Below, one piece after another: positions 1,811 to 25,778 of a stretch of 64,000 nucleotides of DNA. The notes beneath the pieces are model-generated. The model had not been told where the DNA came from and ran no database searches. It worked only from the letters and a program-made list of their open reading frames with translations. Within the stretch, counting starts at the first letter, position 1, and every line of letters starts with the position of its first letter. The position numbers were made by a program, and so were the translations under genes. Location: positions 106,233-170,232 of IMG/VR virus record IMGVR_UViG_2751185671_000004. One strand, written 5' to 3'. The stretch is from a virus (lineage: Duplodnaviria > Caudoviricetes).

Positions 1811-2416
1811 CTACTTACCGTCGTCCCACGAATTCAAAAAATCAGCAAGAATATCGCCGTGGCAAGCTTCTGGTTTACAAAAACACCCCAGACGCTTTCC
1901 TGCTAATTTATACACTTCAGATTTTTCTTTGTTAGGAAATTTTTCATAGTCAAAATCGTATTTATATTTACGTATGACCTCGTTTCGATCATCTCCTTCA
2001 CTATACATTGAGTAAGGGTTTCCCCAGTAAGAACCTCTTCCAATGTACTCATAATTCGGCGTACTCTTCTCTTTTTGGTATTCTGGCTCAGTTTTTATAT
2101 TTACAACTCGTGTTATAGCAATACTAATAACTCTTAGCGGCTTACCGCTATCCTTTATTTTTTTTATTTCTTCTCCGAACTCTTCACCATCATCAAAAAT
2201 AATTGCATGAGTTATATCGTCAGTTGTCCAATTAATTAATTTTATGCTCTTCAATTTTCCTGGGTTTTCATCACACAATCTCTGTATAAAATCACACGGA
2301 TCGTTTGGATAAGTTAAAACAACATCTTTGAGACTTGAAGATATTTTCTCTACTTTTCTAGAAAACTTTGAGTAGCAATTAAATAGTTTTGGATAAAGAA
2401 TTAATACTGTCGCCAT
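1811..2416 (-). CDS. SLOG(YspA)-like N-terminal domain fused to DUF4326
   Basis: C-terminal YIGRGSYWGNPY...LAGKRLGCFCKPEACHGDIL is the DUF4326 signature; N-terminal THAIIFDDG...GKPLRVI resembles YspA-type SLOG. Confidence 0.8.
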   Translation of the reverse strand: MATVLILYPKLFNCYSKFSRKVEKISSSLKDVVLTYPNDPCDFIQRLCDENPGKLKSIKLINWTTDDITHAIIFDDGEEFGEEIKKIKDSGKPLRVISIAITRVVNIKTEPEYQKEKSTPNYEYIGRGSYWGNPYSMYSEGDDRNEVIRKYKYDFDYEKFPNKEKSEVYKLAGKRLGCFCKPEACHGDILADFLNSWDDGK

Positions 2417-2868
2417 TAATACAAATGCTTCACTTTTAGATCTAATTCAGAATTCTCATTAAGGTACTCAACAACAAGCCTCCTATGACATAAATGCGGT
2501 TCATGCTCACTACACAATAAGCAACCTTGATCTAGCAATGCAGGCTTTACTGACCTTTCTATATTTCTTTGCCCCATAAGATTTAGAAATTTATCTTCAT
2601 ACTCTTCCCAGGGTATTTCACCTTTTTTATAAGCATTCAAGATGTCTTTTGTTGGAGCAAGCTCTGGAACATGCACGTAATCCGTATTACAAAGCTCTTT
2701 TAAGAAAAATCTAAGGTCATCTCTCTTTGCAAAACCGGCAAGTTGAGAAATATTGTTTAATCGCACATCCAAAAGTGTACTTATTTCTGATGTGCGAATG
2801 AGGTTAAAGAATGTTTCTGCGTTCTTTTTAGTAAAACCAATCGTGTATATATCTATTTCATTAGCCAT
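2416..2868 (-). CDS. DUF488 family protein
   Basis: IYTIGF, LLDVRL, LAP, LLCSE...CHRRLV motifs. Confidence 0.88.
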   Translation of the reverse strand: MANEIDIYTIGFTKKNAETFFNLIRTSEISTLLDVRLNNISQLAGFAKRDDLRFFLKELCNTDYVHVPELAPTKDILNAYKKGEIPWEEYEDKFLNLMGQRNIERSVKPALLDQGCLLCSEHEPHLCHRRLVVEYLNENSELDLKVKHLY

Positions 2869-3568
2869 AGCTTCTTATCTCATCGTGAAACCTTGGAAAT
2901 GTATAGATTCCGTTAACCTGCAACCAGTATCCATTCCTCTCTCCAATAGCCCAGACTCTACTTAATCCCACTCTTAGATAGACTGAATCCTGTTTATTTA
3001 TTAAATCAGTGACCTCGTGTAGCCTATCATCATTTTGGTGCTTTTTCGCATAGTCATGAAATCCCCTATCAGTGATTGAAAGATAGTTGTACTTATGTCC
3101 ACTATCATCTGTGAAAGAAGCTTTAATTTTTCCTGGTTTAAACTGGTCTTCATGAATGCTTAACTGACGTGGCAAGACCTTAATCGTGATTATTGAACAA
3201 TTTGCCTCTTGACCGTAGGGAATATGTTTCTGATTAGAATCAAAATCAATACCAAAACCTTGTGACACAGAATCACTCGATGAGTTTTCTAGTATTTGAA
3301 GGAACTGCTCACCATTGCATGCACCATAAAATTTTAGGTCGGAATAACTAGCATCCTCAACATGAGGATTATCTCTATTTTGCTGCAAAGAAATATTCCC
3401 TTTCAAGATTGCACCAGGATGAATACCTAATTCCTCACATTTAGTGCTTTTTAAATAAGGCATTGGCCGGAAACATTCGCCTGTCTTCACATCAATTACG
3501 GCTGTACAGACATTATCACCGGTAGAAAACCTTGTTAAGTCTGTGATTATTACTTCTCTCATTCTCAC
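2861..3568 (-). CDS. Dual-OB-domain-like protein, first gene of the 3-gene operon
   Basis: N-terminal VCTAVID..RP, PHVED, SITD, C-terminal RVGLSR...WLQVNGIYT; overlaps the DUF488 gene. Confidence 0.65.
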   Translation of the reverse strand: MRMREVIITDLTRFSTGDNVCTAVIDVKTGECFRPMPYLKSTKCEELGIHPGAILKGNISLQQNRDNPHVEDASYSDLKFYGACNGEQFLQILENSSSDSVSQGFGIDFDSNQKHIPYGQEANCSIITIKVLPRQLSIHEDQFKPGKIKASFTDDSGHKYNYLSITDRGFHDYAKKHQNDDRLHEVTDLINKQDSVYLRVGLSRVWAIGERNGYWLQVNGIYTFPRFHDEIRSYG

Positions 3569-4004
3569 TCCTTAAGCTTAATTTTTTGTACTCTAGTTTT
3601 CAATTTTGATGCACAAGCTACCAGAGAAAAACCCAAAACAAATAATATAAACATTATTATTATTAGATTTCAAAGTCGCAACTTACTCATAGCAGATATT
3701 AGGTATTAGGCAAAATTTTGAGTATGTAGCATGTTTTATTGATTATTTCGGCCTGTCAATTAAAAATAACTCATCACAAAATCAAGGACTTTTATATGCA
3801 TAGAAATACTTTCCTAATCTGATAAGCGACTATAACAGGCAAGTTAAGCATATATAATTCTTCGTGAATGTCTAGGTTAACTGACGTCAAAAGGCTTAAT
3901 TCGATATAGAACTAAAAACTACAAGCAGATGCACCACATTGATGCATAACAACTTTACCAATTCTTACAAGGACTTACCACTAAGCCTAAATACATCACA
4001 GAAA

Positions 4005-4035
4005 GGGTTTGAACCGAGTTCCCTCCCCTCCACCA
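4005..4035 (+). other. tRNA/tmRNA 3'-end remnant (att-like scar)
   Basis: GGGTTTGAACCGAGTTCCCTCCCCTCCACCA resembles a T-arm plus acceptor stem ending CCA; no upstream half of a tRNA. Confidence 0.55.
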
Positions 4036-4041
4036 ATAGAT

Positions 4042-4072
4042 AAAAGCCAACCCCTATCAGGTTGGCTTTTTT
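4042..4072 (+). terminator. Intrinsic terminator-like hairpin
   Basis: AAAAGCCAACC-loop-GGTTGGCTTTT plus T run; homologous copy at 53802-53829. Confidence 0.7.
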
Positions 4073-4630
4073 ATGCCTGCCCCCCGCGCTACAGCCCAGT
4101 AACGGCAAGGGTTTGCGGACTTCGGCTATTTTTTAATCCCGGACTTCATAGCATCAAATTCTCTCTTCTCCCCTATATTCTCTCTCACTATGCCACGCAC
4201 CACTTTCGAAGTCCGTCGATGACGAAAAATTATTTCCTTATAAATCAATAACTTAGCGACGGAATTTTATGATGGTTTTTTGAGGGCAATGGCTACCCAA
4301 AAAGAAATACGCAAACCTTACTCAGAACGGAGAAAACCAGAGGGGTTTATAGTTAGCTAAACCAAAGAGGTAATTAACTGTACTAATAAAAACCAAATAC
4401 AGCCCATAGATATAAGGAATAAAATCAATATATTAAGAGTATTTTTCAATCTTATTTTGTACTAGAAGAGAGATATCAGGCATAGGTTTATCATTCATTC
4501 ATTTATTGCTAGGTATGGAAGTAGCAACAAACCTATATTAAGTATATTTCCACTCAAGAGAAAAGACTAAATATCAACCATAGGAATTGCTCAGTGGACA
4601 ACAATGTGGCCACTAATCAGCAACCCTATT

Positions 4631-4658
4631 ATTTTAAGCTGCCTATACGGCAGTAAAC
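4631..4658 (-). CRISPR. Solitary type I-F CRISPR repeat (25/28 match)
   Basis: + strand ATTTTAAGCTGCCTATACGGCAGTAAAC versus TTTCTAAGCTGCCTATACGGCAGTGAAC (reverse complement of GTTCACTGCCGTATAGGCAGCTTAGAAA); CTGCC/GGCAG stem intact. Confidence 0.8.
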
Positions 4659-4730
4659 ATACTGGAAGCGCTAGTCTGCCTACCTGAGCGTACATGGAAA
4701 ACCTATTATCAACACATCCAAAGGCCAGCC

Positions 4731-5216
4731 ATGTCGATAGCAGAAACGCCCCCTTCTACACTAACGCAGATCATGCAGCTTGAAAACATGGCAATGAAAG
4801 AACTGTTAGTCATATGGCAGGAATTCAACCAAACATCACCCCCAGTGCGAGCAAGAAGTTATATTGAGCGGCGTCTGCCTTACGCATTATAAGTTAACTC
4901 GTTAAGTGCTGATGATAAGAAAATTATTAAAAGAAATACACAACGTATTAAAGAGATTAGCCAAACATACGCAATCAATAAAAGTAAAAATAAACAAAAC
5001 ACTTATATTCCAGTACCGGGCACCATTTTGAAACGACTTTATAACGATGTGGAATACGAGGTGATTGTGCGATCAGATGAACAGTTTGAATTTCAAAAAC
5101 GCCCTTACAAAAGTTTATCCAAAATTGCGAAAGAGATTACCGGTACACATTGGTCTGGGCCTGCATTTTTTGGCTCTCGACAATCTAAGAAAATAGTGAA
5201 AAAATCATCAACATAA
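4731..5216 (+). pseudogene. DUF2924 protein with an internal stop (relic of a serine-recombinase-type element)
   Basis: ATG at 4731 is in frame with the 5028 ORF; TAA at 4890-4892; PVPGTILKR...YKSLSKIAKEITGTHWSGPAFFG is the DUF2924 signature. Confidence 0.85.
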
Positions 5217-5228
5217 AAATAATATTAA

Positions 5229-5366
5229 ATGCTAAAATATTTTGGTATCAAGGTTACACAAAAAGGTGTAGTCACAAAGACTTTACCTATAGTAGGAGGC
5301 CTTATTGGAGGTGGCTGGAACTATATTGAAGTTAGTGTAATAAAAAAGAACAATTTCATCTTTTGA
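5229..5366 (+). pseudogene. C-terminal fragment of an EcsC-like protein (truncated cassette)
   Basis: LKYFGIKVTQKGVVTKTLPIVGGLIGGGWN; followed by an attC-like site. Confidence 0.45.
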
Positions 5367-5376
5367 AGCAAACTAA

Positions 5377-5442
5377 GCATAACAAGTTGCTGATAGATAC
5401 AAGACTACTGTGCTTCAGTTTTTTCAAAACAAGGCGTTATAT
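5377..5442 (+). other. Degenerate attC-like site
   Basis: GCATAAC...GGCGTTATAT ends; shares about 150 bp of downstream sequence with the 1276-1347 site. Confidence 0.45.
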
Positions 5443-5722
5443 CGAATGATCGCACTGTAGATACTAATGTGTCATAGCTTCTTTTTTTGTGCGGCGGAAA
5501 ACTGAAAGAAGCACACGCTCGTTATCGTTGACTAAATATCTGCTTGTGATAAAAAGTTCTAAACGCCAATCATACTTCCAATACTGACCAGTACTTGACT
5601 TAATGAAGGATATTAATTCACAAAAATAAACTGCAGTGAATAGTTAAGTGTGTGTCCACAATAGTTTAGCACAGTGAAAATTATCCTTCATACCCAGACA
5701 CACGCTTAGACCAATTTTCGAC

Positions 5723-6496
5723 GGTTTTGTCGCATACCGGACTTTTGAAATTTTACCCTTTATACTGCCGGTTCATATTTAGCCACTAGTCTAAGTAGCC
5801 AATGATCATTTTGCAAAGTGTTCGCTGGTACTGCGCTTATGCACTCGGTTACCGAAATATTGATGAGATAATGGCTGATCGCGGAACTGACGTTGACCAC
5901 AGTACTTTGAATTGTTGGGTAATATTCTACGCGCCGAAATTAGAAAAGCTTTTCAAAAAAAGAAGCGTCTACCCGGGAATAAATGGCGGCTTGATGAGAC
6001 GTATCTCAGAGTTAAAGGCCAGTGGAAATATTATTGTGCCGTTGGTAAACATGGTAATGCCGTTGACTTTTTACTGACCGCCAAGCGTGATAAGAAGGCG
6101 GCTCAACACTTTTTCGCAAAAACGGTTAAACACAATGGAAAGCCCTGCTTATTAAATATTGATAAAAGCGGCGCCAATAAATCAAACATAAGACAATTCA
6201 GCCAAGGTAACAATGAGCGTGTTAAAATCTGTCAGTGTAAATATTTAAACGATGTCATTGAGCAGGATCATCGGCGAATTACAAGACTCTCCCGCTCAAT
6301 GCTTGGCTTTAAGAATTTTCATTGTACACAAAAAACATTGGCAGAAATTGAAGTTGCGGTAATGATCAAAAAAGGGCAAATGAAGAAAACTATTGCTAAC
6401 GGTCTGTAATGCACTAAACAATTCTATGCTTTGGCTGTGTAAGCCGCAAATCCCCTTTTAACTTTTGACGCCGAATTAATTAGTTGCGACGAAAAT
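5723..6496 (+). mobile_element. IS6-family element, frameshifted transposase
   Basis: Left end GGTTTTGTCGCA, imperfect right end TGCGACGAAAAT; ORFs 5802-6077 and 5912-6409 carry VRWY, VDHSTL, WRLDETY, NDVIEQDHR. Confidence 0.9.
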
Positions 6497-6567
6497 TTTT
6501 AAAAACACCCAATCAAATAATGTTTGGGATCAAACCAATAATTGCACTAGCGAGTTGAATCTACATT

Positions 6568-8016
6568 ATGAAAGACAATATATTTAGAAACAAAAATAAA
6601 TGGTTTTACCTTTTCTTAATGATGTGTATTACCTTCTTTAGCCTTCAGTCTCATGCGGGGAGTAAAAAGTTACGGTTTGGTTCACCTGAATCCGCAGGAA
6701 TGGATTCAGAAAAAATTAAGCAGGTTGCTCAGAACCTGCAAGTTCTTGTCGATGAAGAACGTTTGGCGGGTATGGTAACCATCGCTGCGCGTCATGGCAA
6801 AATAGTTCATTACGAAACCATGGGCTATCAGGATATTGCGACAAAAACACCTATGGAAAAGGACACCATCTTTAGAGTGTACTCTATGTCTAAACCGATA
6901 ACCGGTGTCGCGATGATGATGTTGTTTGAGGAAAAAAAGTTTCGTCTTTCAGATCCTGTCGAAAAATACATTCCTGAATTTGCTGATATGCAAGTTTATG
7001 TGGGTTTGGATGATGACGGTAATATGATCACTGAACCTGCTAATAGCAGCATAACCATTCGTCAGTTGATGAATCACACTGCTGGTTTTGGATATGGCAC
7101 AATGATGGGCAACCATCCTGTTCATGTTATGTTATCAGAGGCAAATAATTTTGATGCTGACTCCAGCTTACAAGACATGATCACTAAAATGTCTACCGTC
7201 CCTCTTTTATTTCAGCCCGGTACAAATTTCTCTTATAGCGCATCAGTAGATATTCAGGGTTATCTTGTAGAAAAATTGTCTGGTCAGCGTTTTGGTGAAT
7301 TTTTGCAAGAACGAATCTTCGAGCCACTGGAAATGAATGATACCGCTTTCTATGTTCCAGTAGAAAAACATGATCGCCTTGCAGAGGTTTATCATTATGA
7401 CATCAACAGTAAGCTGGTAGAACAAGAGTTATACGGCAATGTTATTCGTTTTAAAGAAGAGCAAATGCTGGAAGCCGGTGGTTGGGGCCTGGTTTCAACC
7501 GCGATGGATTATTTAAGATTTTCACAAATGTTACTCAACGGCGGTAAATTAGATGGCGTAAGACTTTTAAAACCAAAGACTGTAAGGATGATGCGTACAA
7601 ATCAGCTCCCGGAGCATCTGGTTAATAATTTGGATCCATTGCTTGGTGGGCAGCCTGGAGCAAGTTTTGGGCTTAATTTTGGCATTGTTGAAGATCCTGA
7701 AGGTAACCCGGTTGGTGGCTATTCTAAAGGGGAATACTATTGGGGTGGAGCTGCCGGAACCTGGTTCTGGATTGACCCAGTTGAAGACTTGGTTTTCGTT
7801 GGTATGGTTCAACAGTTTGCCGGTCAGCCCCAAATTCCTGATGTTAGAATGATATCGAAACACGCGTTCTATCAGGCAATTACAGACAGTGAGTCTGATG
7901 ACGACGATACAGACAGTGAGTCTGATGACGACGATACAGACAGCGAGTCTGATGACGACGATACAGACAGCGAGTCTGATGACGACGATACAGACAGCGA
8001 GTCTGATGACGACTAG
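6568..8016 (+). CDS. Secreted serine hydrolase of the beta-lactamase / class C-like family with an acidic repeat tail
   Basis: Signal peptide ending SHA; SMSK catalytic motif, LMNHTAG, QPGTNFSYS, WGGAAGT; C-terminal (TDSESDDDD)x5. Confidence 0.9.
   Translation: MKDNIFRNKNKWFYLFLMMCITFFSLQSHAGSKKLRFGSPESAGMDSEKIKQVAQNLQVLVDEERLAGMVTIAARHGKIVHYETMGYQDIATKTPMEKDTIFRVYSMSKPITGVAMMMLFEEKKFRLSDPVEKYIPEFADMQVYVGLDDDGNMITEPANSSITIRQLMNHTAGFGYGTMMGNHPVHVMLSEANNFDADSSLQDMITKMSTVPLLFQPGTNFSYSASVDIQGYLVEKLSGQRFGEFLQERIFEPLEMNDTAFYVPVEKHDRLAEVYHYDINSKLVEQELYGNVIRFKEEQMLEAGGWGLVSTAMDYLRFSQMLLNGGKLDGVRLLKPKTVRMMRTNQLPEHLVNNLDPLLGGQPGASFGLNFGIVEDPEGNPVGGYSKGEYYWGGAAGTWFWIDPVEDLVFVGMVQQFAGQPQIPDVRMISKHAFYQAITDSESDDDDTDSESDDDDTDSESDDDDTDSESDDDDTDSESDDD
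7882..8013 (+). repeat. 27-bp tandem repeat, about 5 copies
   Basis: ACAGACAG(T/C)GAGTCTGATGACGACGAT repeated in frame. Confidence 0.95.
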
Positions 8017-8038
8017 ATAGAGGACTACCGGGTTTTGT

Positions 8039-8460
8039 GGTTTTGTCACATACCGGACTTTTGAAATTCTACTCATTGTACTAGCGGCTCGTATTTAGCC
8101 GCTAGACTAAGTAACCAATGATCAGTTTTAAATCTCGCCACTATCCCCAAGAAATCATTCTGCAATGTTTTCGCTGGTACTTTGCCTATGCACTGAGCTA
8201 TAGAAATATTGAAGAAATGATGGCGGAGCGAGGCATTGATGTTGACCACAGCACCTTAAATCCTTGGGTTATATTCTACGCGACGAAAATTAGAAAAGTC
8301 CTTTCAACAAAAGAAGTGTTTACCCAGAAAGAGATGGCGGCTTGATGAGACTTATCTCAAACTTAAAGGCCAGTGGAAATATTATTATCGTGCCGTTAAT
8401 AAAAGCGGCGCCAATAAATCAGACATAAAACAATTCAACCAAGACAACAGTAATCGTGTT
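8039..8460 (+). mobile_element. Truncated second IS6 copy, same orientation as the first
   Basis: Left end GGTTTTGTCACATACCGGACTTTTGAAATT nearly identical to 5723; MISFKSRHYPQEIILQCFRWY; frameshift and internal deletion. Confidence 0.85.
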
Positions 8461-8769
8461 ATGAACTACCTTTAACTCACTAGACGTTTTTTAGGCGAGA
8501 ATAATACGTTTGTTCATACTGATTTGACGGCATGTTATCACAGTAACTGTGATGACGTGTGGCGTTGTAACACCATTTGCAGTAAGACAACCACAGTCCT
8601 ATATAGACTACCAATCAAAGCCACCTTCTATGAAAGTGGCTTTTTACTTTTTTCCTGTGCTTAACAACCGAGTAGTGTCGATAGCTTTTAACAAGATGGC
8701 CAGTTTAAGTGTACTACCATCATTGTTCTATATATCGTCCAGTATTTGCAAGTTAAAAAGTATTGACTT

Positions 8770-9078
8770 CTAGCGTTGAGGGCGTTGTATGATGTTAAGG
8801 ATCTCTCGATCACTAGGACGTAGTTGTTCTCTAGTTCTTCTTCGAACAGATGATCTTGTAGTTGGTGTATTTGCCTCAGGATGAGAATTTTGTATCAGAC
8901 TTTCGATGGCATTTTGACTAGGGCGCGACTGTGTTTCGTGAGTTCGTCTACGAACACTATAATTCAGCAATGGTTCCCTAGCGGTAGTTCTTCTATGACG
9001 ATTTGTATTTGTATTTGTATTTGTATTTGTTTGACTTACGGGTCGATGTGAACTACGTGATGATCTGTTTACTGGCAT
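8770..9078 (-). CDS. Orphan Ser/Arg-rich protein, effector-like
   Basis: AGGAG RBS; HrpL-like box at 9114-9141; (TN)x5 encoded by a 6-bp microsatellite at 9001-9030. Confidence 0.6.
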   Translation of the reverse strand: MPVNRSSRSSHRPVSQTNTNTNTNTNRHRRTTAREPLLNYSVRRRTHETQSRPSQNAIESLIQNSHPEANTPTTRSSVRRRTREQLRPSDREILNIIQRPQR

Positions 9079-9113
9079 TAAAACTCCTATTTTATAATAT
9101 TAATGTCGATCTG

Positions 9114-9141
9114 TAAGTATGCTATTAGCGGAAAAAGTTCT
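9114..9141 (-). promoter_or_regulatory. HrpL-box-like ECF promoter
   Basis: Minus strand AGAACT-N15-ATACTTA. Confidence 0.6.
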
Positions 9142-9519
9142 TAAAATCGACATCATATTATTTGGGATAAGGTAAATATACCAACCAACTTAATTTATAG
9201 CGGCAGAAAATAATGCACCCGCGCCTATAAAATCAGCTCTCGATAAAAGTTAATATTGTAGAAGTAATAGATTAACTCTAGTTAATGTGAGCTTTGTATC
9301 AATATCATCTACTATTTTTTTTGTTAAATCGTGCTATTTTCAGTGTGTTGTATTTGTCAAACATACGAAACTCCAAAATCAGTAAAAAAGTGTGAGTTAT
9401 AATCGAAAAACAAACCAAAATAGACTCTAGCTAATATATTTTTAGAAAAAATTTGGAGCATTGAAATAGGCTTATTACTATTAGCACGTCATTTACTGTA
9501 ATTTATATTGAAATATTCT

Positions 9520-9547
9520 CAAACTTTTAGCTGAGTATAATTACTCA
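9520..9547 (+). promoter_or_regulatory. HrpL-box-like ECF promoter (one deviation in -35)
   Basis: CAAACT-N15-TTACTCA, 34 bp before the ATG at 9582. Confidence 0.5.
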
Positions 9548-9654
9548 TCATATAATTTAAAAAAATAAGAGAAAAGTATTTATGCCCATCAGGTATTCCA
9601 GGTGCTTATTATTGTAATAAAGGTCATTGCGTCAACAGACTTATAGACAACAGA

Positions 9655-10356
9655 ATGAGGGAAAGACACAATGATTATCATCACAGTCATTCAACACAAT
9701 CAGTTTTTCCTTCAACTCATAATTCGTTAACTCAATCGCAACCTTCGTCTATAGCGTTGAGATTACGCTTGAAGCCAAGCCCAACAAAAGCTAGCGCTAG
9801 CTCGTCATCTAGAATGTCAAGGTCGACACAGATAGGAAAACAAATTTTTGATAAATATTCTCCCTCGCAATTTACTTCTCTTCGTAATGATCAAAAATCT
9901 TATTTACGATCTTACTATGATTATATGAAATGGCCTCATCATTCGAGCCTTGAAATAAAAAGATTAGTCAAAAGAGACTCGTCTGAAGTAGAAGATCTTC
10001 TTGGTCAGAAGAGACAACATCTCTCCAGAAAAGAAAGCGCAAAGTTATCTCGATTAGCCAGCGGTCGAGACAGCTATAATAGTTATCTATCGAAGACTAA
10101 AACAACATTCACTCTGAGAGAACGGCAATATGCACGTGAATACTTAATATCAAAAGGTAAAGATATACCATCTGTATTTGCGAAGGAAAGATATACAAGA
10201 GATGACGCAACTGCCAAGCCAGCGGCATATGATAGCGCAGACTCTCGACGACAAGCCTCATATCGATACGAAGCTCGGAAAGCAGCGGAAAGATCTACAG
10301 ATTCAGCAAAAAGAGCAAAATTAAACGATCCGAATTGGTGGGCATACTTACAGTGA
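9655..10356 (+). CDS. Orphan basic Ser-rich protein, effector-like; original start probably 9582 with a 1-bp insertion
   Basis: 233-aa ORF; upstream ATG at 9582 is one base out of frame, and PSGIPGAYYCNK continues in frame into the ORF. Confidence 0.6.
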   Translation: MRERHNDYHHSHSTQSVFPSTHNSLTQSQPSSIALRLRLKPSPTKASASSSSRMSRSTQIGKQIFDKYSPSQFTSLRNDQKSYLRSYYDYMKWPHHSSLEIKRLVKRDSSEVEDLLGQKRQHLSRKESAKLSRLASGRDSYNSYLSKTKTTFTLRERQYAREYLISKGKDIPSVFAKERYTRDDATAKPAAYDSADSRRQASYRYEARKAAERSTDSAKRAKLNDPNWWAYLQ

Positions 10357-10420
10357 TAGTAATGTTATCAAATTACTTATTTTTTGATAAATGAAAAAAT
10401 ATAAGTTTAACGTTAACATT

Positions 10421-10448
10421 TTTCTAAGCTGCCTATACGGAAGTGAAC
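10421..10448 (-). CRISPR. Solitary type I-F CRISPR repeat (27/28)
   Basis: TTTCTAAGCTGCCTATACGGAAGTGAAC. Confidence 0.88.
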
Positions 10449-10594
10449 AACAGTAAAAATCCCCAGTGGACTTTAATTTCTGTGACTTAATAAAGTCTAT
10501 AAAATAATATAGCAATTGGTGTAACTCTGCGTTTTTGAACTATAAGACAGAATTAGCTTTCTACTTACTCTTGAATTTATAAGATTAATTACAG

Positions 10595-10622
10595 GGAACC
10601 ATTTTTTTCTTTATTTCACATA
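10595..10622 (+). promoter_or_regulatory. HrpL-box-like promoter
   Basis: GGAACC-N15-TCACATA, one base from GGAACC-N15/16-CCACNNA. Confidence 0.7.
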
Positions 10623-10668
10623 TTTATTACTATTGTAAACACTGCAACTGATTTTAAAAGAGAAAACA

Positions 10669-11382
10669 ATGCCTAGACGTATAGATCGAAAAACAAGCCC
10701 TTTGATACCTCTGCACCATAAGCATTTGACACTTAATAAGAGGTTGAGGCACACAGAGCCAAGACCTCCAGTAATGCACCGGCGCCGCTCGTTTCACCAC
10801 ACGGCTCCAGAAACTAGAGCATTAAAAAGGCGGCATTCCCATAATCGTACAAGGCCACAACCTAGACCATTAATGCAAAATCAATTTTTTAAGTGGCCGG
10901 TGAAGAAAAGAAGCAGAGAATATGATAACGAGACTATAGGTCATGCTAGAGCACCTGCTATTAGAGGCCGCAAAATAGATCGTTTGAGTAACGAACAGCT
11001 CAAGCGTCGTGAGTTAACATTTCATAATGGTAGAGTTTTTGACTCTAAAGGAAATCGATTTGATACACGTGATTCGACAGAAAAAATGATAGGTAGGCCA
11101 CGAGTGAAAACTGACAAGGCAAACTTTATTATGACAGGGAATGGAAAAATCCGAGTAGATAAACATCCGACCGTTGGCAAAAGGCATCATACGTCTTTAG
11201 CAAGAAAAGGAGGTGCTGTCGCAGGTGCTGGTAAAATAGCTGTATATAATGGTCATTTAGTCGATGTTACAGATGAGAGTGGCCATTATAAAACTACTCG
11301 TAAAATGATGAAAAATGTGGAGAGGCAATTTAAAGAGAATGGTATAAATACTACAGGAAAATTTACCCGTTTTTTTAGTTAG
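10669..11382 (+). CDS. Effector-like protein with C-terminal HH..AG..SGHY toxin-type domain
   Basis: Disordered R/H/P-rich N-terminus; RHHTSLARKGGAVAGAGKIAVYNGHLVDVTDESGHYK. Confidence 0.7.
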   Translation: MPRRIDRKTSPLIPLHHKHLTLNKRLRHTEPRPPVMHRRRSFHHTAPETRALKRRHSHNRTRPQPRPLMQNQFFKWPVKKRSREYDNETIGHARAPAIRGRKIDRLSNEQLKRRELTFHNGRVFDSKGNRFDTRDSTEKMIGRPRVKTDKANFIMTGNGKIRVDKHPTVGKRHHTSLARKGGAVAGAGKIAVYNGHLVDVTDESGHYKTTRKMMKNVERQFKENGINTTGKFTRFFS

Positions 11383-11461
11383 ACAAGGTTTGATGATATA
11401 CCCACAACTAAGAATTAATACTAGTTAAAACGATTGTCACACGTAATTATTTTGAAGCAAT

Positions 11462-11493
11462 AAAACCCTTAGTAAATTTTTTATCAAGGGTTT
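11462..11493 (+). terminator. Terminator-like hairpin after 10669-11382
   Basis: AAAACCCTT...AAGGGTTTT. Confidence 0.5.
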
Positions 11494-11558
11494 TGTTCTT
11501 TAAAGATAATGAAATACTACAGAATTTTCTCACATAAAAATGGAGTTTTAAATAGATA

Positions 11559-11586
11559 TTTCTAAGCTGCCTATACGGCAGTGAAC
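11559..11586 (-). CRISPR. Perfect type I-F CRISPR repeat, leader-proximal, no array
   Basis: TTTCTAAGCTGCCTATACGGCAGTGAAC = reverse complement of GTTCACTGCCGTATAGGCAGCTTAGAAA. Confidence 0.92.
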
Positions 11587-11717
11587 AATACAAAAACCAC
11601 AATAAGCATCTGATTATTAAAGAACTTTTATGCTTTTTAGCATAAATACCCTTTTTTATTTTCTTACATCAAACCCACGTAAAATGCGGACTGTGGTGAT
11701 ACTCGAAAAAAAGGGTA
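11587..11717 (-). promoter_or_regulatory. Type I-F CRISPR leader
   Basis: Minus strand ACCCTTTTTTT...AAAAAAGGGT inverted motifs and IHF-like AATCAGATGCTTA just upstream of the repeat; homologous copy at ~54775-54996. Confidence 0.8.
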
Positions 11718-12245
11718 CAACCGAAGAATAGTGTAAATGAACAATTACTCATCTCACAAAGACTAAGGTGACAATATTTATACTAACAGCTTGGCACCTA
11801 TATTTTCATTCTGAGCGCGACAAACTCTCATTTACACCAGAGGCCTTTAAAAAAGTATCTTCTAGTTTCACTTAAGAGCCAATATGAATGCAGGATAATA
11901 ATAAGTTAAGTTTTTCACAAAACATGTCATATGATTGGTGCATACTCAAATATGTATGATAAAGACACTAGTAATTTGCTGGCTTTATATAAGACTCACT
12001 CTATATCAATTCAATTTAGCTGAAGTATTTTCAATCTATTGTGACTTACGTGAAAACTTAAGCAGCTTCACAGTCTCACATAAAAAATATAACAGAGAAT
12101 AATAATAAAGCTTATCGATGAGATGCATCATGGGATCGCACTATAGAATTACACATTACTTTAGAGCCCTAACGCCAGGAATTAAAAAGGTCTTACGTAT
12201 TTTTGGTAATTAAGCGACGAATGCCTCGGTGAGTGTTGTCGCACG

Positions 12246-12769
12246 ATGGGTAAAATCGGGGTATATCCCTTGCGATAAAGTATAGGAAGTGATGCTGTTG
12301 GATAGCGCCGATTTATTGGCAAAGTTAGGCCATTACAGTGTTTTTGGTATCGAGGTTAATGCGGTGCATTATACCCATCCCTATTAAGTTCCGTTTTCAT
12401 AATTCTCTTGAAGAAGGGCAACTGTTGCCTATTCCCGATCTTATCGTCGACTACGGGTGTATGCTGTTGAGTGAAAAGTCTTACCGTATTTTTTACGCAA
12501 TGCTGGCAGAGCATGGAGAATTCTTACCCATCTATTCCGGCAATACACGAGCTTATCTTTATAACCCGCTAAAAGTTGCCAAACAATTTAATGGGCTAGA
12601 TATAAAAAAATCTACAAAAAATGAATATGAATACGATAACTATCTCGGGATTTATTGCCGACACGATTTTAGCGACACGGTGATGCGTCATAACTTGCGC
12701 GGTATTGTTTTTGAAGAAAACATTGCTTTGTCATTTCCAGCAGACCCGGCAGTCTTGGCCGAAGACTAA
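12246..12769 (+). pseudogene. Decayed immunity-like protein (Imm11/DUF1629-like)
   Basis: IPDLIVDYG..LLSEKSY..GEFLPI motifs; the 5' part is broken by stops and frameshifts. Confidence 0.4.
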
Positions 12770-13268
12770 TAATCAATAATCTATGGGGGAGCAAGACCAA
12801 GGAAGACGAACACTCAGCAAGGACGCTTTTTTTATCTGTTACACATTACGACCAAAGTCGCATACGCGGCACGAATTATCACAACCTACATTTATAGTTA
12901 ACATCAACATTATTCACATGTTCATGAGTTATTCATGTTTCTACGTGTAAGGAGCTATGTTGTATGAAAAAAATTCATATAGCTAATATGTCACCTAAAA
13001 CACTGTATTTTAATACACCTTATGTTAAAATTTTCGACAAGTTAGTGTTTATTTTTCCATATTTTTCTCGAATAACGCGGTGTAATTTTTTAAAAAAATA
13101 TATTGATATACCGTGTTTTCGCAAAGGTTTAGGAAGCCGATATTTAACGTTTAAGGATACATCACATGTTTATCGTCCAGTAAAGTATTTAATCCCAACG
13201 ACACATACACATAACATACCTTATGGTGAGGTATTTCTGTGTGCTTTTCATTTATACAAGGAGGATGT

Positions 13269-14759
13269 ATGAATCCCTCTCGCCTTACTATTTCTTGTTG
13301 TTCTTTTATTTTTGTGAATATAGAAAAGAAAAGGACATATAACTTAATCAACAAAGCTCTTCTATTCGTCTGTTTTTTTTCGATGACTTACACTTTATCT
13401 CGTCCTGCTTATGCGGATATTGTCCCTTTAGATATTTCTCTAGGCGTTAATTACGATGGCTATATTTCCAATGCCGAGGCGAGTCATGCGGCATTATACG
13501 ATCCACCTTCAAGTTGGGGATTTGTCAGTCGAGATGTTGGTCGTGTCTTTGGCGAACATCAACTGGGCTTTTGGGGAACCTATAGTTGGGATAATCAGAG
13601 TGATTCTGGTTTACCTGTAAGTGGTGAGTTATCGACTAACTACGGTATTTTTCGCCTTAATACCTCACGTGACGCAGCACCTCAAGCGGGCTTTGTACTG
13701 CCACCGCAAGGATCAACACCACAACTTTCAACACACCCCAATGTTGTGCGAGCACATCGTCCTCATAGCCCATCGCTTGAGCATCCTGGTGCTGCTGTTG
13801 ACGTTACTTTACCCATAGAGCAACACGCCCGTTACGCCTCCATTAATTTTTTAATGTCAGGTAGTGGCAATAAAACAATGCTCTATGCCCTTTACGACAA
13901 TGGGCTAGGAGATGTGGATCGCGTATTGATTTATGACTCAATGGGCATCCCTGATCCGGAAGTACAAGAGATCGGGTTTCCTGAACCAAGAAGTGTCAGC
14001 ACGAATAATCCGGATCTTGTTTCTGCGTTGAGGATGGATAATCGCTGGGAGAATTATGAGGGGCGCTCTCATATTCGTCCAGGCATTACCCATATTTGGA
14101 CATTTGCTTCCCCGTTAGCGCTTGACTCTTCACGTACATTACGTGGATTTACCTTAGCCGTTTATAACGAAGATATTTGGAAAGCACGCTCCGCATTTAT
14201 TTATGCGGCGTCGGCGGATCGACTCAACGTGCCTGCCCTCAGTTCAGCGGCGAAAGCCACCACCATTGCTGAAGATGGCTCACGCTATGTCAGTACGCAT
14301 AATAATTTATTACGAAAAATTGATAACAATGGTGCTGAGCTTTGGTCACAGTCGTTAGGACTAATTAATAGCGAACCGCTCATCGGTGCTAGTAATACAT
14401 TATTTGTCGGTTCTACCAATGCTCATGTATACAGCATTAATGCCGACGCAGGTAATGTGTTGTGGTCAGCCGATACACAAGGCGCGGTTGCTGGTCTTGC
14501 CTTTAATAATGAAAAAAATACAGTATTCGCCATTACTCAAAATGGTTGGCTTTACGCCTTCGATTTAAATGGTACTGAACTGTGGCGTTTACGCCTTAAT
14601 GTATCGGCCAATGCCACCGTCAATGCTGCCCCCATCGTTTCCCCTGCAAGTGCACCCACGGATTATCTTTATATCAAAGATAGTGAAGGACGTTTGTATG
14701 CAGTGGAGCCTGCCAATCCATTACAGAACAGGGAGGCGAGTGTCGTATGGGTACGTTAA
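13269..14759 (+). CDS. Secreted protein with C-terminal PQQ/BamB-type propeller blades (about 4)
   Basis: GGAGG RBS before ATG 13269; signal-peptide-like segment ending AYA; repeated G..LW blades; overlaps the Rhs gene start. Confidence 0.8.
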   Translation: MNPSRLTISCCSFIFVNIEKKRTYNLINKALLFVCFFSMTYTLSRPAYADIVPLDISLGVNYDGYISNAEASHAALYDPPSSWGFVSRDVGRVFGEHQLGFWGTYSWDNQSDSGLPVSGELSTNYGIFRLNTSRDAAPQAGFVLPPQGSTPQLSTHPNVVRAHRPHSPSLEHPGAAVDVTLPIEQHARYASINFLMSGSGNKTMLYALYDNGLGDVDRVLIYDSMGIPDPEVQEIGFPEPRSVSTNNPDLVSALRMDNRWENYEGRSHIRPGITHIWTFASPLALDSSRTLRGFTLAVYNEDIWKARSAFIYAASADRLNVPALSSAAKATTIAEDGSRYVSTHNNLLRKIDNNGAELWSQSLGLINSEPLIGASNTLFVGSTNAHVYSINADAGNVLWSADTQGAVAGLAFNNEKNTVFAITQNGWLYAFDLNGTELWRLRLNVSANATVNAAPIVSPASAPTDYLYIKDSEGRLYAVEPANPLQNREASVVWVR

Positions 14760-17700
14760 ATTCTAAAAACGTTGTTCACCGTAGCATGAATAAAAATGAT
14801 CATATTTTTGCTGGGAGCTTTTTAGCAATGAACCTGCATAATCTTAAATTTTTTCACTATATTTTATTACCATTATTTTTTGTCTTTAGTCCATTCGTAA
14901 GCGCACAACAATCCTATTTTAATTTTCTTGATGTGGAGAATGTCAGCGGATCGGGTTCCACAGCCACTTATACCGATACTAATGGCACTTACAGAATTTC
15001 TTATTCCTTCCCATTTATCCCTAACATCGATGCAACACGCTTAACGGCAACGCGCACCTTTAATGGCCAACAAACACGCTTGGATTTTGGGTACGTGGAT
15101 GGTGAAACACGCACCATTACGCTCAACCATGATAACGGTGTGTATCGGTATTATGCTGAGTCGGAAATTAATGATCATGGTGATCCTGATGGTGGCGGAA
15201 CGGATATTGATCTCATCGGCACTATTACGGTCATTCGTCAACTAGGTTCCATGGGAACCATTTCGTTACCCAACTACTGTATTAATAGTTATACCGTTAG
15301 TTGGCCAGCGGTCTCAGCAGCGAATCGTTACGATATTGAAGAATCTTCTAATGGGGGGAGCACATGGACACGTTTAACCAATCCGGCTGGCGCAAGTGCC
15401 ACCTCAATTTCACGACCCGGCATTAACACCGGCGAAGAACGTCGGTATCGCGTGCGCGCCTATTATGATCAACAACCCAACACACGCACGCCATGGCAAA
15501 CTTCTGCCCGTTGCCAAGGGAATATTAGGCCGAGTGTTTCATTGTTCTCTCCTAGCAATGGCCACTACCAATTATTGAACCAAGTACTTCTACTGTCAGC
15601 CAGTGCGACCGATACCAACGGCTCCGTCTCCTACGTGGATTTTTACCACGGCACAACACGTATTGCCCGTGATACCAGCGCACCGTTTACCGCTCAATGG
15701 ACACCCACACAATCAGGTGCACAAACACTGGAGGCTCGCGCTACCGATAACCATGGCGCCACCACACGTTCAACCGCTATCACGGTCAATGTGCACACAC
15801 GCCCCACCGTATTTATTAATAGTCCCGCACCTAACACACAATTTGATGTGGGAGACAGTGTGTCCATCGGCGCAACCGCCAGTGATGATGGCACCATCAC
15901 CCAAGTACAGTTTTTTCGCAATGGCAGTATCATCAGCACCGATACCAGCGCACCTTATACCGCCACGTGGACAGTCTCCGCTTCGGGTTTACATTCCATT
16001 ACCGCACAAGCCACCGATAATCACGGCATCACCAGTGCTTCTTCGCCAGTCGTGGTGATTGAAGGGATTGAACAAACCGCACCTAATTCAGCACCGACAG
16101 GATTAGCGGCAGACACTGGAGTAAATAACAGCACCGGGATTTACACACTCAGCTGGAATGCAGTAACAGATGCGAATGAATACGAGCTACAAGAATGCCG
16201 TTTAGCGACCTGCAGCGATGGCGATTTTACCCGCGTGATTCGCTCCGCCAATCGTGCCGCCTCTTTTACCGGCTTAGGCAATGGCAGCTACACCTATCGC
16301 GTCAATGCCTGTAATGATGTGGGGTGTTCAGCCTTTAGTGCCCCTTATACGGTGACTATCACCTTACCGGTACCACAACGCCCCGGCCCCACCTATTTAA
16401 AAACTTCAGCAGTATGTGCCAACGGTGCTACCAGTGGCCAAAGCACTGGCGCTTTCGAGATCTGTTGGGATGCGGTTACAGAAAACCTGGATCACTACTT
16501 AGTGGAAGAACAAATAGGGACTGGCCCTTGGCAGCAAATCGCCAATCAAAGCGCAACATCACTTGTACTTAATAATAAAACCACCAATACCTATTCCTAT
16601 CGTGTGCTGGCCTGTAATGATCAAAACGCCTGCAGTACGCCTGGAGGGATTTTATCCGTTAGTGTGATTGATACTCCGGTGATTTACAGCGCATCACTCG
16701 CTTGCGATGGCACCTGTGTGTCGATTGCTGGGACGGGCTTTGATACGAATACGCAAGTGGCTGTGAGTTCTATTACAACCAGCCCGTTAAACCAAACGTT
16801 TAGTTCACCTGAATTAATCGTTAACAACGATTCCCTGCAATTGCCTATCGATGATGCCTTGGTGATTGATGCCTTAAATAACCTTGGCGGTTTGTCATTA
16901 GCGGTGGTCAACACCACCAATAATAATCGCGCGAGCACACAGGTCTATCCCAATAATGCATCACCGGAACCTGCCGTCAATAGTGGGCCACCTACCATCA
17001 GTGCTAACGGGATTATTTATATTGGCCGTGGTGATCAACTGTATGCCTATGACAGTGCCGGTACGCTTATTACGGGATGGCCAGTGGATATTCAAGAACC
17101 GATTACCACCCAGCCTGCCCTTTCTGTGAATGAAAATACCGTCTACGTGGGCGGCGGTGATCGCCACCTTGTGGCGGTGGGTGGCGCTGAAGATGTACTC
17201 AGTGGCCAAATCCATTGGCAATTCCCCGCAGCAGGCGCGGTGGCTTCACCTCTAGTAGATCAATATGACTTTGTTTACGCGGGTGCGATGGACAGCCGTT
17301 TCTATTCCCTTGGCACCGATGGCCAGGTTCGCTGGACATATAACGCCACTGCCGGTATTGCCGAAAAGCCAGTGATTTATGGGGATTACAGTCTGTCCTT
17401 TAGTTCTGTGGATGGGCAATTGCATCAGCTACGGGCTGGGGTGATCGGGCCGGAGCAACTCAACTGGCAAAGTATCGATCAATCCTTATTGCGTGATTAT
17501 TTAAGCACTGTTGGCGAAGACTTTGAGCAGTTTGTGGTGGACGGTTGGGATGCTACCGAACTCTTTCAAGTGGGGCGTTTATTTGAAGGCTTATTGCGTC
17601 GTCATCCTGATAAAGAAACACTCACATTCTGGACCTATGCCTTACTGCCAGATTATGGCGCGACCTTAGAAGAGGTGACGGAAGCCTTTTTAACCTCTGA

Positions 17701-25012: not shown

Positions 25013-25023
25013 AATTACTGCTT

Positions 25024-25500
25024 ATGTATAAATTTATGATTAATTTTGTATTCTCTATTTTATTGTTACTTTTAGCTACTTGCTTACGAGCTGAGTCGGT
25101 TTGCTTAGTTAATGAAAGCTCTAAAGTTGACGGTAATATTCATTATACTTTTCTTGGCGATGGATTTATAAGGATTGATGTCCGATTTAAAAAAAATCAG
25201 GAAAATGATAATTTTTTTAAGGAGGCTGAACTTTTTTATGGCGTCCCTTTGAAAATTGATAACTACGAACTGTTAGATGATAGTAAATTTATTCTTCAAA
25301 CAAAACTTATTCTTTTGGAGGAAGAAACAATGCTAAGTTCTACTTTTACTGTTAGTGAATTGTTCTCGCCTTTTTCAATATTGATGACTCTAGGGTCGCA
25401 AAGTTCGTCAGGAATATGCGATAAAAAATTTGTTAGAACTGTTTCTAATGATGATATAGATTCATCTAAAACGTTTGGAAAAATTAGTTTGCGTAAATAG
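25024..25500 (+). CDS. Putative cognate immunity protein, exported
   Basis: Directly downstream of the toxin tip; signal peptide; AT-rich. Confidence 0.7.
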   Translation: MYKFMINFVFSILLLLLATCLRAESVCLVNESSKVDGNIHYTFLGDGFIRIDVRFKKNQENDNFFKEAELFYGVPLKIDNYELLDDSKFILQTKLILLEEETMLSSTFTVSELFSPFSILMTLGSQSSSGICDKKFVRTVSNDDIDSSKTFGKISLRK

Positions 25501-25778
25501 TTTTAAGCACGAGGCATCATAGATAAAGCAAAGGTTTTCTTAAAAAATATTAACTAGATGGCAAGAATATTTAGTTAAATATTTTTAAATAGATATGATG
25601 AAAGTTAGGCTCTATTTAGATCTAAGGGCTGGCTTATGATATTGTTTAATTACATGGCGCTTTAAAGAGCCGTCAGTTATTGTTTTATAATAGCTGGCGG
25701 TTTTTTGTTATTGCTAGAATTAAAATGTATTTGTTCCTGAGTGTGTGGTTTACGAAAACTTGGCTGGAGAGAAGAAAT

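Follow-up and report, generated by a model that had tools for sequence, protein, structure and literature searches.

CRISPR arrays that have been interrupted by mobile DNA are among the closest described counterparts of the locus considered here, the DR locus of Mycobacterium tuberculosis, in which the array is interrupted by the insertion sequence IS6110, being one example. CRISPR repeats are also found beside toxin-like genes in CreTA modules, CRISPR-repressed pairs of toxin and antitoxin RNAs in which CreA controls CreT, and a superficial likeness is offered by integrons (attI, attC cassettes, and IntI), where gene units, each with a palindromic repeat, lie beside a promoter-bearing platform. 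Repeats can themselves be the targets of mobile elements. Prophages integrate into the CRISPR repeats of Streptococcus pyogenes, according to the account of Varble et al. (2021, Nat Microbiol 6:1516) given in PMC11837452, and cyanobacterial Tn7-like transposons likewise target CRISPR repeats (PMC11837452). Phages carry solitary repeat units and RNA anti-CRISPRs (PMC10651486), and a review (PMC8616872) attributes to Faure et al. (2019) the proposal that solitary repeats integrate by recombining with the repeats of an array.

The locus analyzed here lies in a window (the whole stretch of DNA under study) of 64,000 nt, and its appearance is that of a scar, of a kind already known, and not that of a gene-capturing machine. 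We consider it probable, at roughly three chances in four, that it is an ordinary type I-F array, one of three paralogous copies that arose when a variable island underwent segmental duplication, and that its interior has been broken by non-CRISPR DNA. As in arrays interrupted by insertion sequences, kilobases of gene-bearing DNA with transposase relics inside separate otherwise normal repeats, leaving a live part of the array at the leader and orphaned repeats at the distal end. A clean case for comparison came from a repeat scan across 121 genomes of the family, in which the spacing anomaly was read in one, a relative from another genus (G013); the 2321-bp gap in its 78-repeat array consists of an IS66 element that has inverted ends of 26 bp and has duplicated 8 bp of its target, and the two parts of the split spacer sum to 32 nt. 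By contrast, the inserts at the present locus are old, composite, and partly deleted, a single junction shows their origin, and one of them, a 1.1-kb unit, is without the hallmarks of a transposon.

The leader-proximal end is that of a regular array. The core type I-F leader occupies 11587-11716 on the minus strand, a block common to all of the arrays compared, which bears out the leader placed at 11717-11587 by the original prediction, and its identity to the leaders of the genome's four true arrays is 81-92%: 92% over 221 nt for the array at C1:1994032, 89% over 450 nt for that at C1:1843906, and 84% and 81% over about 158 nt for those at C1:2626438 and C1:3199316, the last being adjacent to the cas genes. 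Upstream of the core, homology extends to 11778 for one paralogous array and to about 12093 for the other, and the DNA adjoining the leader encodes a propeller protein and small ORFs without known function. Immediately beside the leader is repeat A (11559-11586, minus strand), which has no mismatches and scores 49.1 bits against the Rfam model CRISPR-DR4. Leader and repeat A together are a normal site for spacer uptake and expression.

Two further repeats follow on the same strand. Repeat B (10421-10448; 37.7 bits) has no leader and carries one mismatch, a G-to-T change at position 8 that breaks the central base pair in the stem of the Cas6f hairpin, while repeat C (4631-4658; 39.1 bits) is a degenerate terminal repeat with three mismatches whose last letters, TTAAAAT, are also those of the terminal repeat in the paralogous array at C1:1994872. 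All three are co-oriented, exceed the CRISPR-DR4 gathering threshold, and are identical or near-identical to repeats in the regular arrays of the genome; shuffled sequence gave no matches. The perfect and near-perfect repeats had been anticipated correctly, and it was the terminal repeat and the trailer beyond it that had not been listed with them. The rise in mismatches with distance from the leader (0, 1, and 3) indicates repeat decay of the sort seen in any old array and thus counts for a disrupted one. Instead of a 60-nt period with spacers of about 32 nt, the repeats are separated by 1110 bp (A to B) and 5762 bp (B to C). No further degenerate repeats were detected within the inserts when up to 11 mismatches were allowed, and when leader remnants were sought upstream of B and C, local alignment scores fell below the shuffle mean, so that the likeness (7 of 10 positions) between the end of the leader and the 10 nt preceding repeat B is attributed to chance.

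Beyond repeat C is an array trailer (3955-4630, minus strand), which matches at 84-85% identity the sequences following the arrays at C1:1994032 and C1:1843906 as well as other copies of the island; repeat C and the roughly 640 nt that follow it (4021-4657) align at 84% over 643 nt with the terminal repeat and trailer of the former array. At the other end, the array at C1:1994032 is preceded by DNA that is 89% identical to more than 6 kb upstream of the locus. The locus is therefore a paralogue of two normal arrays, making three copies in all. Array flanks are shared by at least five copies of the island, on the chromosome and on plasmid C3; in the other copies that were annotated, the cargo genes are unrelated and repeats are absent. 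The window contains no cas genes, as had been stated, and the recommended check for cas1, cas2-3, and cas6f elsewhere led to a complete operon (cas1f, cas2-3f, csy1, csy2, csy3, and cas6f) at C1:3190499-3199185, 1.43 Mb from the locus, in which every gene is intact and scores above its NCBIfam cut-off. The only Cas1 and Cas6f matches of the genome are those at C1:3.19 Mb.

A sister strain, represented by contigs L043 and L046 of a Tara coral-reef metagenome and 95-99.5% identical, was the one strain available for close comparison. Relatives are found in the Tara sample ERZ28653520 and in run SRR24495964. It has the same three repeats, including the G-to-T change in repeat B, and the same inserts, and the junctions next to repeats B and C are identical, the contigs ending before the junction upstream of repeat B. 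Between its leader and the toxin-domain gene of the 1.1-kb unit, however, lie six perfect repeats and five spacers of 32-33 nt, one of which matches 31 of 32 positions in a P2-like prophage of the present genome, where a 5'-CC PAM is present. At the leader, ordinary spacers are the only differences between the strains. The proposal that 32-nt spacers are lacking is thus true of this genome, though not of its sister, and even here a 23-nt spacer remnant survives; since spacers are absent here and present in the sister, and since this remnant is retained, the locus is classed as a disrupted array. An alignment of related strains had been suggested as a means of revealing gene units gained or lost at repeat edges, and with the one sister strain it revealed none. 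The toxin-domain gene of the sister strain is truncated at residue 180 and has an IS in its promoter, while the array part is intact.

The origin of the larger insert can be read from its contents. Next to repeat B is P0001 (9655-10356, plus strand), a putative ORF of 233 aa rich in Ser, Arg, and Lys that is confined to this genome and the sister strain and for which no homologue was found outside this lineage. Every one of its four differences between the two strains is non-synonymous, and the start is displaced by a 1-nt indel; judged from sequence, P0001 is an uncertain gene. Further from the leader, two decayed IS6-family copies lie on the plus strand in direct orientation, at 8039-8461 and 5723-6409, the first being 75-86% identical to 5723-6224 of the second. 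The second copy retains a truncated transposase ORF (5912-6409) recognizable by PF13610 (E 3e-32) and by NCBIfam transpos_IS6 (132.5 bits). Between them is a gene for a serine hydrolase of beta-lactamase fold (6568-8016, plus strand; PF00144, E 1e-69), which scores below every NCBIfam beta-lactamase cut-off. Two direct IS6 copies around the PF00144 gene give the arrangement of an IS6-family pseudo-compound transposon, presumed to be inactive because both copies are decayed. The remaining recognizable component is a DUF2924 pseudogene fragment (4674-5173, minus strand), truncated at both ends and 85-89% identical to four full copies, one of them on plasmid C3. The source is a 4.9-kb element, present in these four full copies, that encodes a large serine recombinase; an intact copy has DUF2924, Resolvase, and Recombinase domains.

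The junction of this fragment with repeat C is the only readable junction of the locus. Adjoining the repeat are the last 23 nt of a true spacer (4659-4681, minus strand), which match C1:3912076-3912098, in a prophage-like region, exactly; the identity ends precisely at the edge of repeat C, and CC stands at the position expected for the PAM of a 33-nt spacer. The prophage match begins where homology to the mobile element stops, with 8 nt in common (AGGCAGAC). The DUF2924 fragment has thus been joined through an 8-nt microhomology to the final 23 nt of a spacer, placing the junction in mid-spacer, and the same junction is found in the sister strain. An ordinary array in relatives, with genes inserted mid-spacer by unrelated mechanisms, was the outcome that the original prediction had named as speaking against itself, and for the 5.8-kb insert this is largely what is seen. 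Its view that the leader-repeat site may be a landing pad at which cassettes accumulate is not borne out: the leader took up 32-33-nt spacers in the sister strain, one junction lies mid-spacer, and the insert there is mobile debris. Collapsed arrays later invaded by genes, which it had listed as an alternative, is the reading that the evidence favors.

The smaller insert was described correctly as 1110 bp of gene-bearing DNA. P0002 (10669-11382, plus strand) encodes 237 aa with an N-terminus rich in Arg, His, and Pro and a C-terminal toxin-type domain (HH...SGHY), and a bidirectional hairpin terminator, recognized as an inverted repeat and by RNA folding, lies at approximately 11462-11500 between the 3' end of the gene and repeat A. 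Both P0002 and P0001 are encoded on the plus strand and are therefore antisense to the array. Residues 95-230 of P0002 match 730 representative proteins, and the domain occurs at positions 3493-3638 of a 3947-aa protein that has a TPS secretion domain and haemagglutinin repeats. P0002 is accordingly described as having a C-terminal domain of polymorphic-toxin type and is a predicted toxin on the strength of its sequence; dN/dS against homologues is about 0.14. Neither P0002 nor P0001 was assigned to a family in Pfam or NCBIfam. The predicted model of P0002 has a pLDDT above 90 over residues 70-230, and a Foldseek search of the PDB with it returned nothing at E <= 0.001. A phosphohistidine phosphatase was considered and set aside, the best VIA-align match (2nmm; Z 4.5, rmsd 4.4 over 92 residues) being unconvincing.

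Two diverged homologues of the gene place the unit in context. In the second copy (L044), a contig of 1.6 kb, the order is gene, terminator, 59 nt, repeat, and about 20 nt of the end of the leader, where homology breaks off, the rest of the leader having been lost. Its non-coding 3' block, in which the terminator is kept, is 83-90% identical to that of the window, whereas synonymous sites in the gene are saturated (dS 1.3-1.85), so that a conserved block beside such a gene requires either that the block be a gene-conversion tract or that it be under selection, a point that weighs against the disrupted-array reading. The third homologue (L045) has no repeat within 126 nt of the gene and does not share the 3' flank. 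At a second site in the window, predicted to repeat the arrangement at 54033-54996, a leader and repeat are indeed present, in decayed form: 54747-54994 (minus strand) is 70% identical over 256 nt to 11559-11809 (E 2e-17), the degenerate repeat (54747-54774) matches at 20 of 28 positions, and a 109-aa ORF (54146-54475, plus strand) converges on it.

The 1110-bp unit itself has no inverted ends and no recognizable spacer remnant between its two full repeats, and for neither insert was a target-site duplication found that would rebuild a spacer of 32 or 33 nt. With full repeats on both sides and neither remnant, duplication, nor inverted ends, its mode of entry is something that we infer rather than observe. 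The sequence of events that we favor would begin with segmental duplication of a variable island to yield three paralogous arrays. In the present copy, repeat B is a mutated orphan and repeat C the old terminal repeat with its trailer, and the 5.8-kb filling is a mosaic of the hydrolase gene between two decayed IS6 copies and the fragment of the serine-recombinase element, the latter joined through the 8-nt microhomology to the middle of the last spacer. The 1.1-kb unit, with its own promoter and terminator, would have entered by a non-Cas event of the same kind, for which insertion, deletion, or recombination among the island copies are candidates, and it would have been in place before the sister lineage gained normal spacers at the leader. 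The genes would then be passengers, placed by neither Cas proteins nor repeats.

Among the alternatives, the one that fares best, although we regard it as unlikely, is that the 1.1-kb unit, and perhaps that of P0001, was captured when one of the 28-bp repeats of the array underwent homologous recombination with a repeat carried by other DNA; the donor might be another copy of the island, or else a mobile element or circular intermediate bearing a solitary repeat. An insert flanked by complete repeats, with no spacer remnant and no target-duplication solution, is the layout that such an exchange predicts, the five or more island copies on the chromosome and plasmid C3 could serve as partners, homology to L044 crosses the repeat and stops about 20 nt into the leader, and similarity is much higher in the 3' block beside the repeat than in the gene, which is what an exchange initiated at the repeat would produce. 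Integration of this type has also been put forward previously (PMC8616872, citing Faure et al. 2019). Against this, the L044 homology breaks within the leader and not at the repeat edge, L045 has neither a nearby repeat nor the 3' flank, and the sole readable junction is mid-spacer and based on microhomology. No donor, empty site, or alternative occupant was found for the unit in the present genome or in the one sister strain, which shares all inserts. A megablast search of plasmids with the region upstream of the leader gave no match. The viral contigs scanned contained no exact copy of the 23 nt adjoining repeats A and B (three patterns), and two metagenome scans, with the leader-repeat and repeat-59-nt junctions, were likewise negative.

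The systems in which repeats do act as sites of entry differ from the locus in further respects. The S. pyogenes prophages and Tn7-like transposons likewise leave mobile DNA between repeats; there, however, the repeats are targets and the elements bring a repeat-specific integrase or transposase, whereas neither such an enzyme nor the logic of an attachment site is evident here, and the partner to which the serine-recombinase fragment has been joined is a spacer rather than a repeat. Phage solitary repeats resemble the locus in being single I-F-type repeats outside a regular array, and their recombination would give repeat-insert-repeat, but repeats A, B, and C belong to a chromosomal array with leader and trailer, as its first, an internal, and its terminal repeat, and are not decoys carried by a phage. 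In contrast to integrons, the platform here has no integrase or recombinase, Cas1 being encoded 1.43 Mb away, its units carry promoters and terminators of their own and are oriented toward the platform, one boundary falls mid-spacer, and there is no cassette turnover between the two strains.

Since alleles with saturated synonymous sites share a terminator, 59 nt, a repeat, and the leader end (the 83-90% identical block), the leader-proximal repeat and the toxin-domain gene might be a maintained unit, with alleles swapped through the repeat or a Cas6f-processed RNA coupled to the gene, an idea that we hold to be distinctly improbable. In a specifically regulatory version, for which the odds appear slighter still, a transcript from the leader through repeat A would be cut by Cas6f, stopped by the terminator, and control the toxin-domain gene. 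Leader, repeat, and bidirectional terminator, the last 64-100 nt downstream, could indeed yield a short RNA with an 8-nt CUUAGAAA handle, the non-coding stretch that runs from the terminator to the repeat is better conserved between the two gene copies than are synonymous sites, and the neighboring gene has a toxin-type domain with no obvious immunity gene beside it. However, the best CC-flanked seed match of the pseudo-spacer (9 of 12) lies in the coding region and is equalled elsewhere in the window, no CC-flanked site in the promoter region exceeds background, and there is neither another repeat nor a hairpin that would retain Cas6f at the 3' end. L044 keeps the block without the rest of the leader and hence without the presumed promoter, and the array part of the sister strain is intact despite the damage to its gene. 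The antisense or regulatory role that the original prediction had offered as an alternative therefore goes unsupported, the pseudo-spacer having no PAM-plus-seed match to the promoter. CreTA shares with the locus a CRISPR repeat beside a toxin-like gene, but here that gene encodes a 237-aa protein and is accompanied by one repeat, again with no such promoter match.

Integron-like accretion, in which Cas1-Cas2/3 with IHF would insert gene-length DNA at the leader-repeat junction and duplicate the repeat, is scarcely credible, for although the order of leader, repeat, insert, and repeat would fit one integration at the first repeat and cas1 and cas2-3 are intact in the genome, the I-F Cas1-Cas2/3 complex measures its prespacer, the sister leader accepted only spacers of 32-33 nt, the length of all 94 spacers in the four arrays of the genome, the junction of the large insert is mid-spacer and its content transposon debris, and the identity of the inserts in both strains indicates that there has been no turnover.

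The disrupted-array reading has consequences for how similar layouts are interpreted. A repeat-gene-repeat arrangement can form without a CRISPR integrase, and wherever gene-sized spacers are claimed the locus may serve as a control; scar and capture system were told apart here by the combination of a spacer remnant, a sister strain, and a clean IS66 insertion in a relative. Were genes in fact exchanged behind the leader by way of the repeats, CRISPR repeats would be recombination sites for cargo genes, which would be new. As it stands, the locus provides a detailed case of CRISPR array decay in a genome rich in mobile elements, in which the leader end has remained usable while the distal part has become debris and stray genes.

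Three co-oriented type I-F repeats, each above the Rfam CRISPR-DR4 gathering score, lie on the minus strand of the window: the leader-adjacent repeat A (11559-11586, perfect), repeat B (10421-10448, one mismatch) and the terminal repeat C (4631-4658, three mismatches). Shuffled sequence yielded no I-F repeat matches. A gap of 1110 bp separates repeats A and B, and one of 5762 bp lies between B and C. Alignment to the regular arrays of the genome places a leader in the 130 nt upstream of repeat A (11587-11716, minus strand); it is 81-92% identical to the sequence 5' of the first repeat in all four arrays, among them the array of 50 repeats that immediately follows the cas operon, and by this comparison is a true leader. 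Leader, repeats and gene-sized gaps are as the original prediction had described them, and the elements that it listed are correct, although repeat C and the trailer were left out.

The genome holding the window (G000) comprises a 6.88-Mb chromosome (C1) and three plasmids, with 41% G+C. A genome-wide scan found 95 I-F repeats with at most three mismatches, on a single strand throughout; outside four regular arrays, at C1:1843906 (9 repeats), C1:1994032 (15), C1:2626438 (24) and C1:3199316 (50, behind the cas operon), the remainder are the three solitary copies of the window. All 94 spacers of these arrays are 32-33 nt long (33 nt in four). Cas genes sought elsewhere in the genome form a single complete operon (cas1f, cas2-3f, csy1, csy2, csy3, cas6f; C1:3190499-3199185), 1.43 Mb from the locus. 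One spacer of array C1:2626438 occurs in triplicate, consecutively (a4_18 to a4_20), and arrays C1:1843906 and C1:3199316 share an identical spacer (a2_2 and a5_4). Spacers a5_18, a5_31 and a3_8 have perfect self-targets, each with a 5'-CC PAM, on their own chromosome: C1:2847357-2847388, C1:2847936-2847967 and C1:3030460-3030491; two of the three lie in or beside a P2-like prophage also targeted by a spacer of the sister strain. Perfect self-matches alongside an apparently intact cas operon point to an anti-CRISPR or to silenced interference. Three degenerate I-F repeats, one of them with a compensated stem (CTACC...GGTAG), cluster like a mini-array on the minus strand at C1:3071894-3072022, with short spacers of 19-26 nt and a GC-rich hairpin after the cluster. 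They may be a decoy of the solitary-repeat or RNA anti-CRISPR type; the ORFs beside them have no phage matches in Pfam.

The junction at repeat C is decisive for how the locus is read. In the 40 nt preceding this repeat, positions 1-25 extend homology to a DUF2924 element, identically in all four of its full copies, while positions 18-40 (23 nt) match C1:3912076-3912098 exactly, the two overlapping by 8 nt (AGGCAGAC). The 23-nt match, for which the chance expectation is about 2e-7 in some 14 Mb of two-stranded sequence, ends precisely at the first base of repeat C, as a spacer would. Its chromosomal counterpart has phage-type surroundings (a Q-like antiterminator, an O-like replication protein and two other PHROG families) and a CC dinucleotide at the position expected for a 33-nt spacer's PAM. 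This clean decomposition implies that the old array's final spacer survives in part, and that mobile-element DNA was joined to it mid-spacer through microhomology, in an illegitimate deletion or joining event rather than by integration at a repeat.

The 5762-bp stretch is itself a mosaic of mobile elements. A serine hydrolase gene of beta-lactamase fold (6568-8016) lies between two directly oriented, decayed copies of an IS6-family element (5723-6409, whose transposase is truncated, and 8039-8461), as in a pseudo-compound transposon of the IS6/IS26 type. The DUF2924 gene piece (4674-5173) is pseudogenised; four full 4.9-kb copies of the element exist elsewhere in the genome, one of them on plasmid C3, and in these the DUF2924 gene precedes a large serine recombinase gene. 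The low-complexity 233-aa ORF P0001 (9655-10356), a putative gene, is known solely from the lineage of G000 and the sister strain, and cannot be affirmed as genuine because all four differences from the sister strain are non-synonymous.

Two contigs of this sister strain, L043 and L046, were reached by protein look-ups and come from one Tara metagenome. L046 matches window 3955-10638 at 96.7% and contains repeats B and C, the spacer remnant, the entire 5.8-kb mosaic and P0001; its repeat B shows the G8 to T change too. L043 matches 10630-11586 at 99.5%, and past 11586 carries six perfect repeats with five 32-33-nt spacers, followed by the leader and upstream DNA at 95%; the leader of the locus thus accepts ordinary spacers. 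Spacer 2 of L043 matches C1:2846319-2846350 (31/32, 5'-CC PAM), a site flanked by genes for a cI-type repressor and a P2 gpA-type replication protein and close to an integrase gene. An insertion sequence that the sister strain carries 30 nt upstream of the start of P0002, the toxin-domain gene of the 1110-bp stretch, explains why the two contigs share an end point; it has a 9-bp duplication (CTATTGTAA), and its ends, read from L043:1-53 with the end of L046, are GAGCTATG...TCTGGTGTA. P0002 of the sister strain is also truncated at residue 180, before the SGHY motif, and is therefore dispensable. The gene-sized inserts, for which gain or loss at repeat edges had been envisaged, are common to both strains and stable.

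The flanks identify the locus as paralogous to normal arrays. Across window 4021-4657, repeat C and the DNA downstream align at 84% with the terminal repeat and trailer of array C1:1994032, the two repeats sharing the derived ending TTAAAAT, and the trailer is 85% identical to DNA behind array C1:1843906. More than 6 kb upstream of the leader (12624-18811) is 89% identical to DNA upstream of array C1:1994032, with weaker similarity for about 5 kb more, and further flank and trailer copies lacking repeats occur at C1:1915124-1923381 and on plasmid C3. This sharing indicates that an array was duplicated with its flanks inside a larger, variable island. The segmental duplication 5' of the leader (12624-24387 against C1:1977442-1989047, 66-89% identical) spans a propeller gene and a giant Rhs-type gene, and internal tandem copies lie at 22872-34492. 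Immediately past the trailer, the conflict-system genes (mSLOG-DUF4326, DUF488 and DuOB; 1811-3568) differ from those of the sister strain (L046:1-4427), which are MazG_C, UDG and HEPN_AbiV; the array adjoins a defence-island hot spot.

An upstream region of its own and a hairpin terminator readable on both strands accompany P0002 (10669-11382; 237 aa), which is a real gene, given a dN/dS of about 0.14 against two homologues. Its C-terminal domain (HH...SGHY; residues 95-230; invariant G159, H174, G188, G195, H206 and Y207) is present in 730 representative proteins. Since one of them, a TPS/haemagglutinin-repeat protein of 3947 aa, carries it in its C-terminal region, the domain is of polymorphic-toxin type. 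Searches of Pfam and NCBIfam gave no family match and, despite a confident structure model, solved folds gave nothing convincing; an Atlas structure search links the domain to plant IQM proteins.

A diverged P0002 copy (63% protein identity) on contig L044, from the same metagenome, keeps the order gene, terminator, 59 nt, I-F repeat (24/28) and about 20 nt of leader end, after which follows DNA belonging in G000 to another island copy (C1:1920672-1920922). Synonymous sites are saturated between the genes (dS 1.3-1.85), and the non-coding block from stop codon to leader end is 83-90% identical. A third homologue, on L045, is closer in its coding region (dS 0.67) and has an unrelated 3' flank with no repeat within 126 nt of the gene. 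The L044 block is most simply explained by gene conversion between island paralogues over a short tract, with the conserved repeat as its seed; selection acting on the block, or a swap of gene alleles by way of the repeat, might also account for it. The gene copy of L044 has a 165-bp inverted-repeat element (846-1010; ends CTCGATTCCGAGG) in its 3' region.

The 1110-bp unit bears no trace of its mode of entry: it has no target duplication that rebuilds a spacer, no inverted ends, no leader remnant upstream of repeat B and no degenerate repeat inside. Its entry by recombination between repeats, an idea already proposed for solitary and array repeats (review PMC8616872), is rather unlikely. That the locus yields a regulatory RNA is improbable, as no PAM-flanked stretch of the P0002 promoter matches the seed of the pseudo-spacer behind repeat A. 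Insertion of the 1110-bp unit by Cas1, encoded in the distant operon, is scarcely credible.

The second leader-repeat site of the original prediction exists at 54747-54994 in decayed form (70% over 256 nt; repeat 20/28), beside a convergent 109-aa ORF of no recognised family; neither trailer nor further repeat was found nearby, and it is a relic of the same kind as the main locus. Weak minus-strand resemblances at 58380-58407 (8/28 mismatches; nearer to a variant repeat of the cas-adjacent array) and 40490-40517 (10/28) are possibly older relics, though within the range of chance matches.

CRISPR arrays split by insertion sequences are already described, and the locus belongs with them. In the relative G013, of another genus in the same family, an array of 78 repeats is interrupted once, by 2321 bp. 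The interruption is an IS66 element (DDE_Tnp_IS66, TnpB_IS66; L057, G013:C1:3955000-3970000, positions 8003-10323), bounded by 26-bp inverted ends and showing an 8-bp duplication (TGTATTCC), and the flanking spacer halves sum to exactly 32 nt; ordinary transposition thus strikes arrays of this repeat type. CRISPR repeats have been described as integration sites of a prophage (Varble et al., 2021, as cited in PMC11837452) and as homing targets of Tn7-like transposons (PMC11837452), but this locus has no element carrying its own repeat-targeting enzyme. Nor does it behave as the integron-like landing pad for effector cassettes originally proposed, since a recombinase is absent from the site, one boundary lies mid-spacer and the two strains show no turnover. 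One of the alternatives then offered, a collapsed array later invaded, is supported by the microhomology junction, the mobile-element mosaic and the ordinary spacers of the sister strain, making the locus a further example of an already familiar kind of event.
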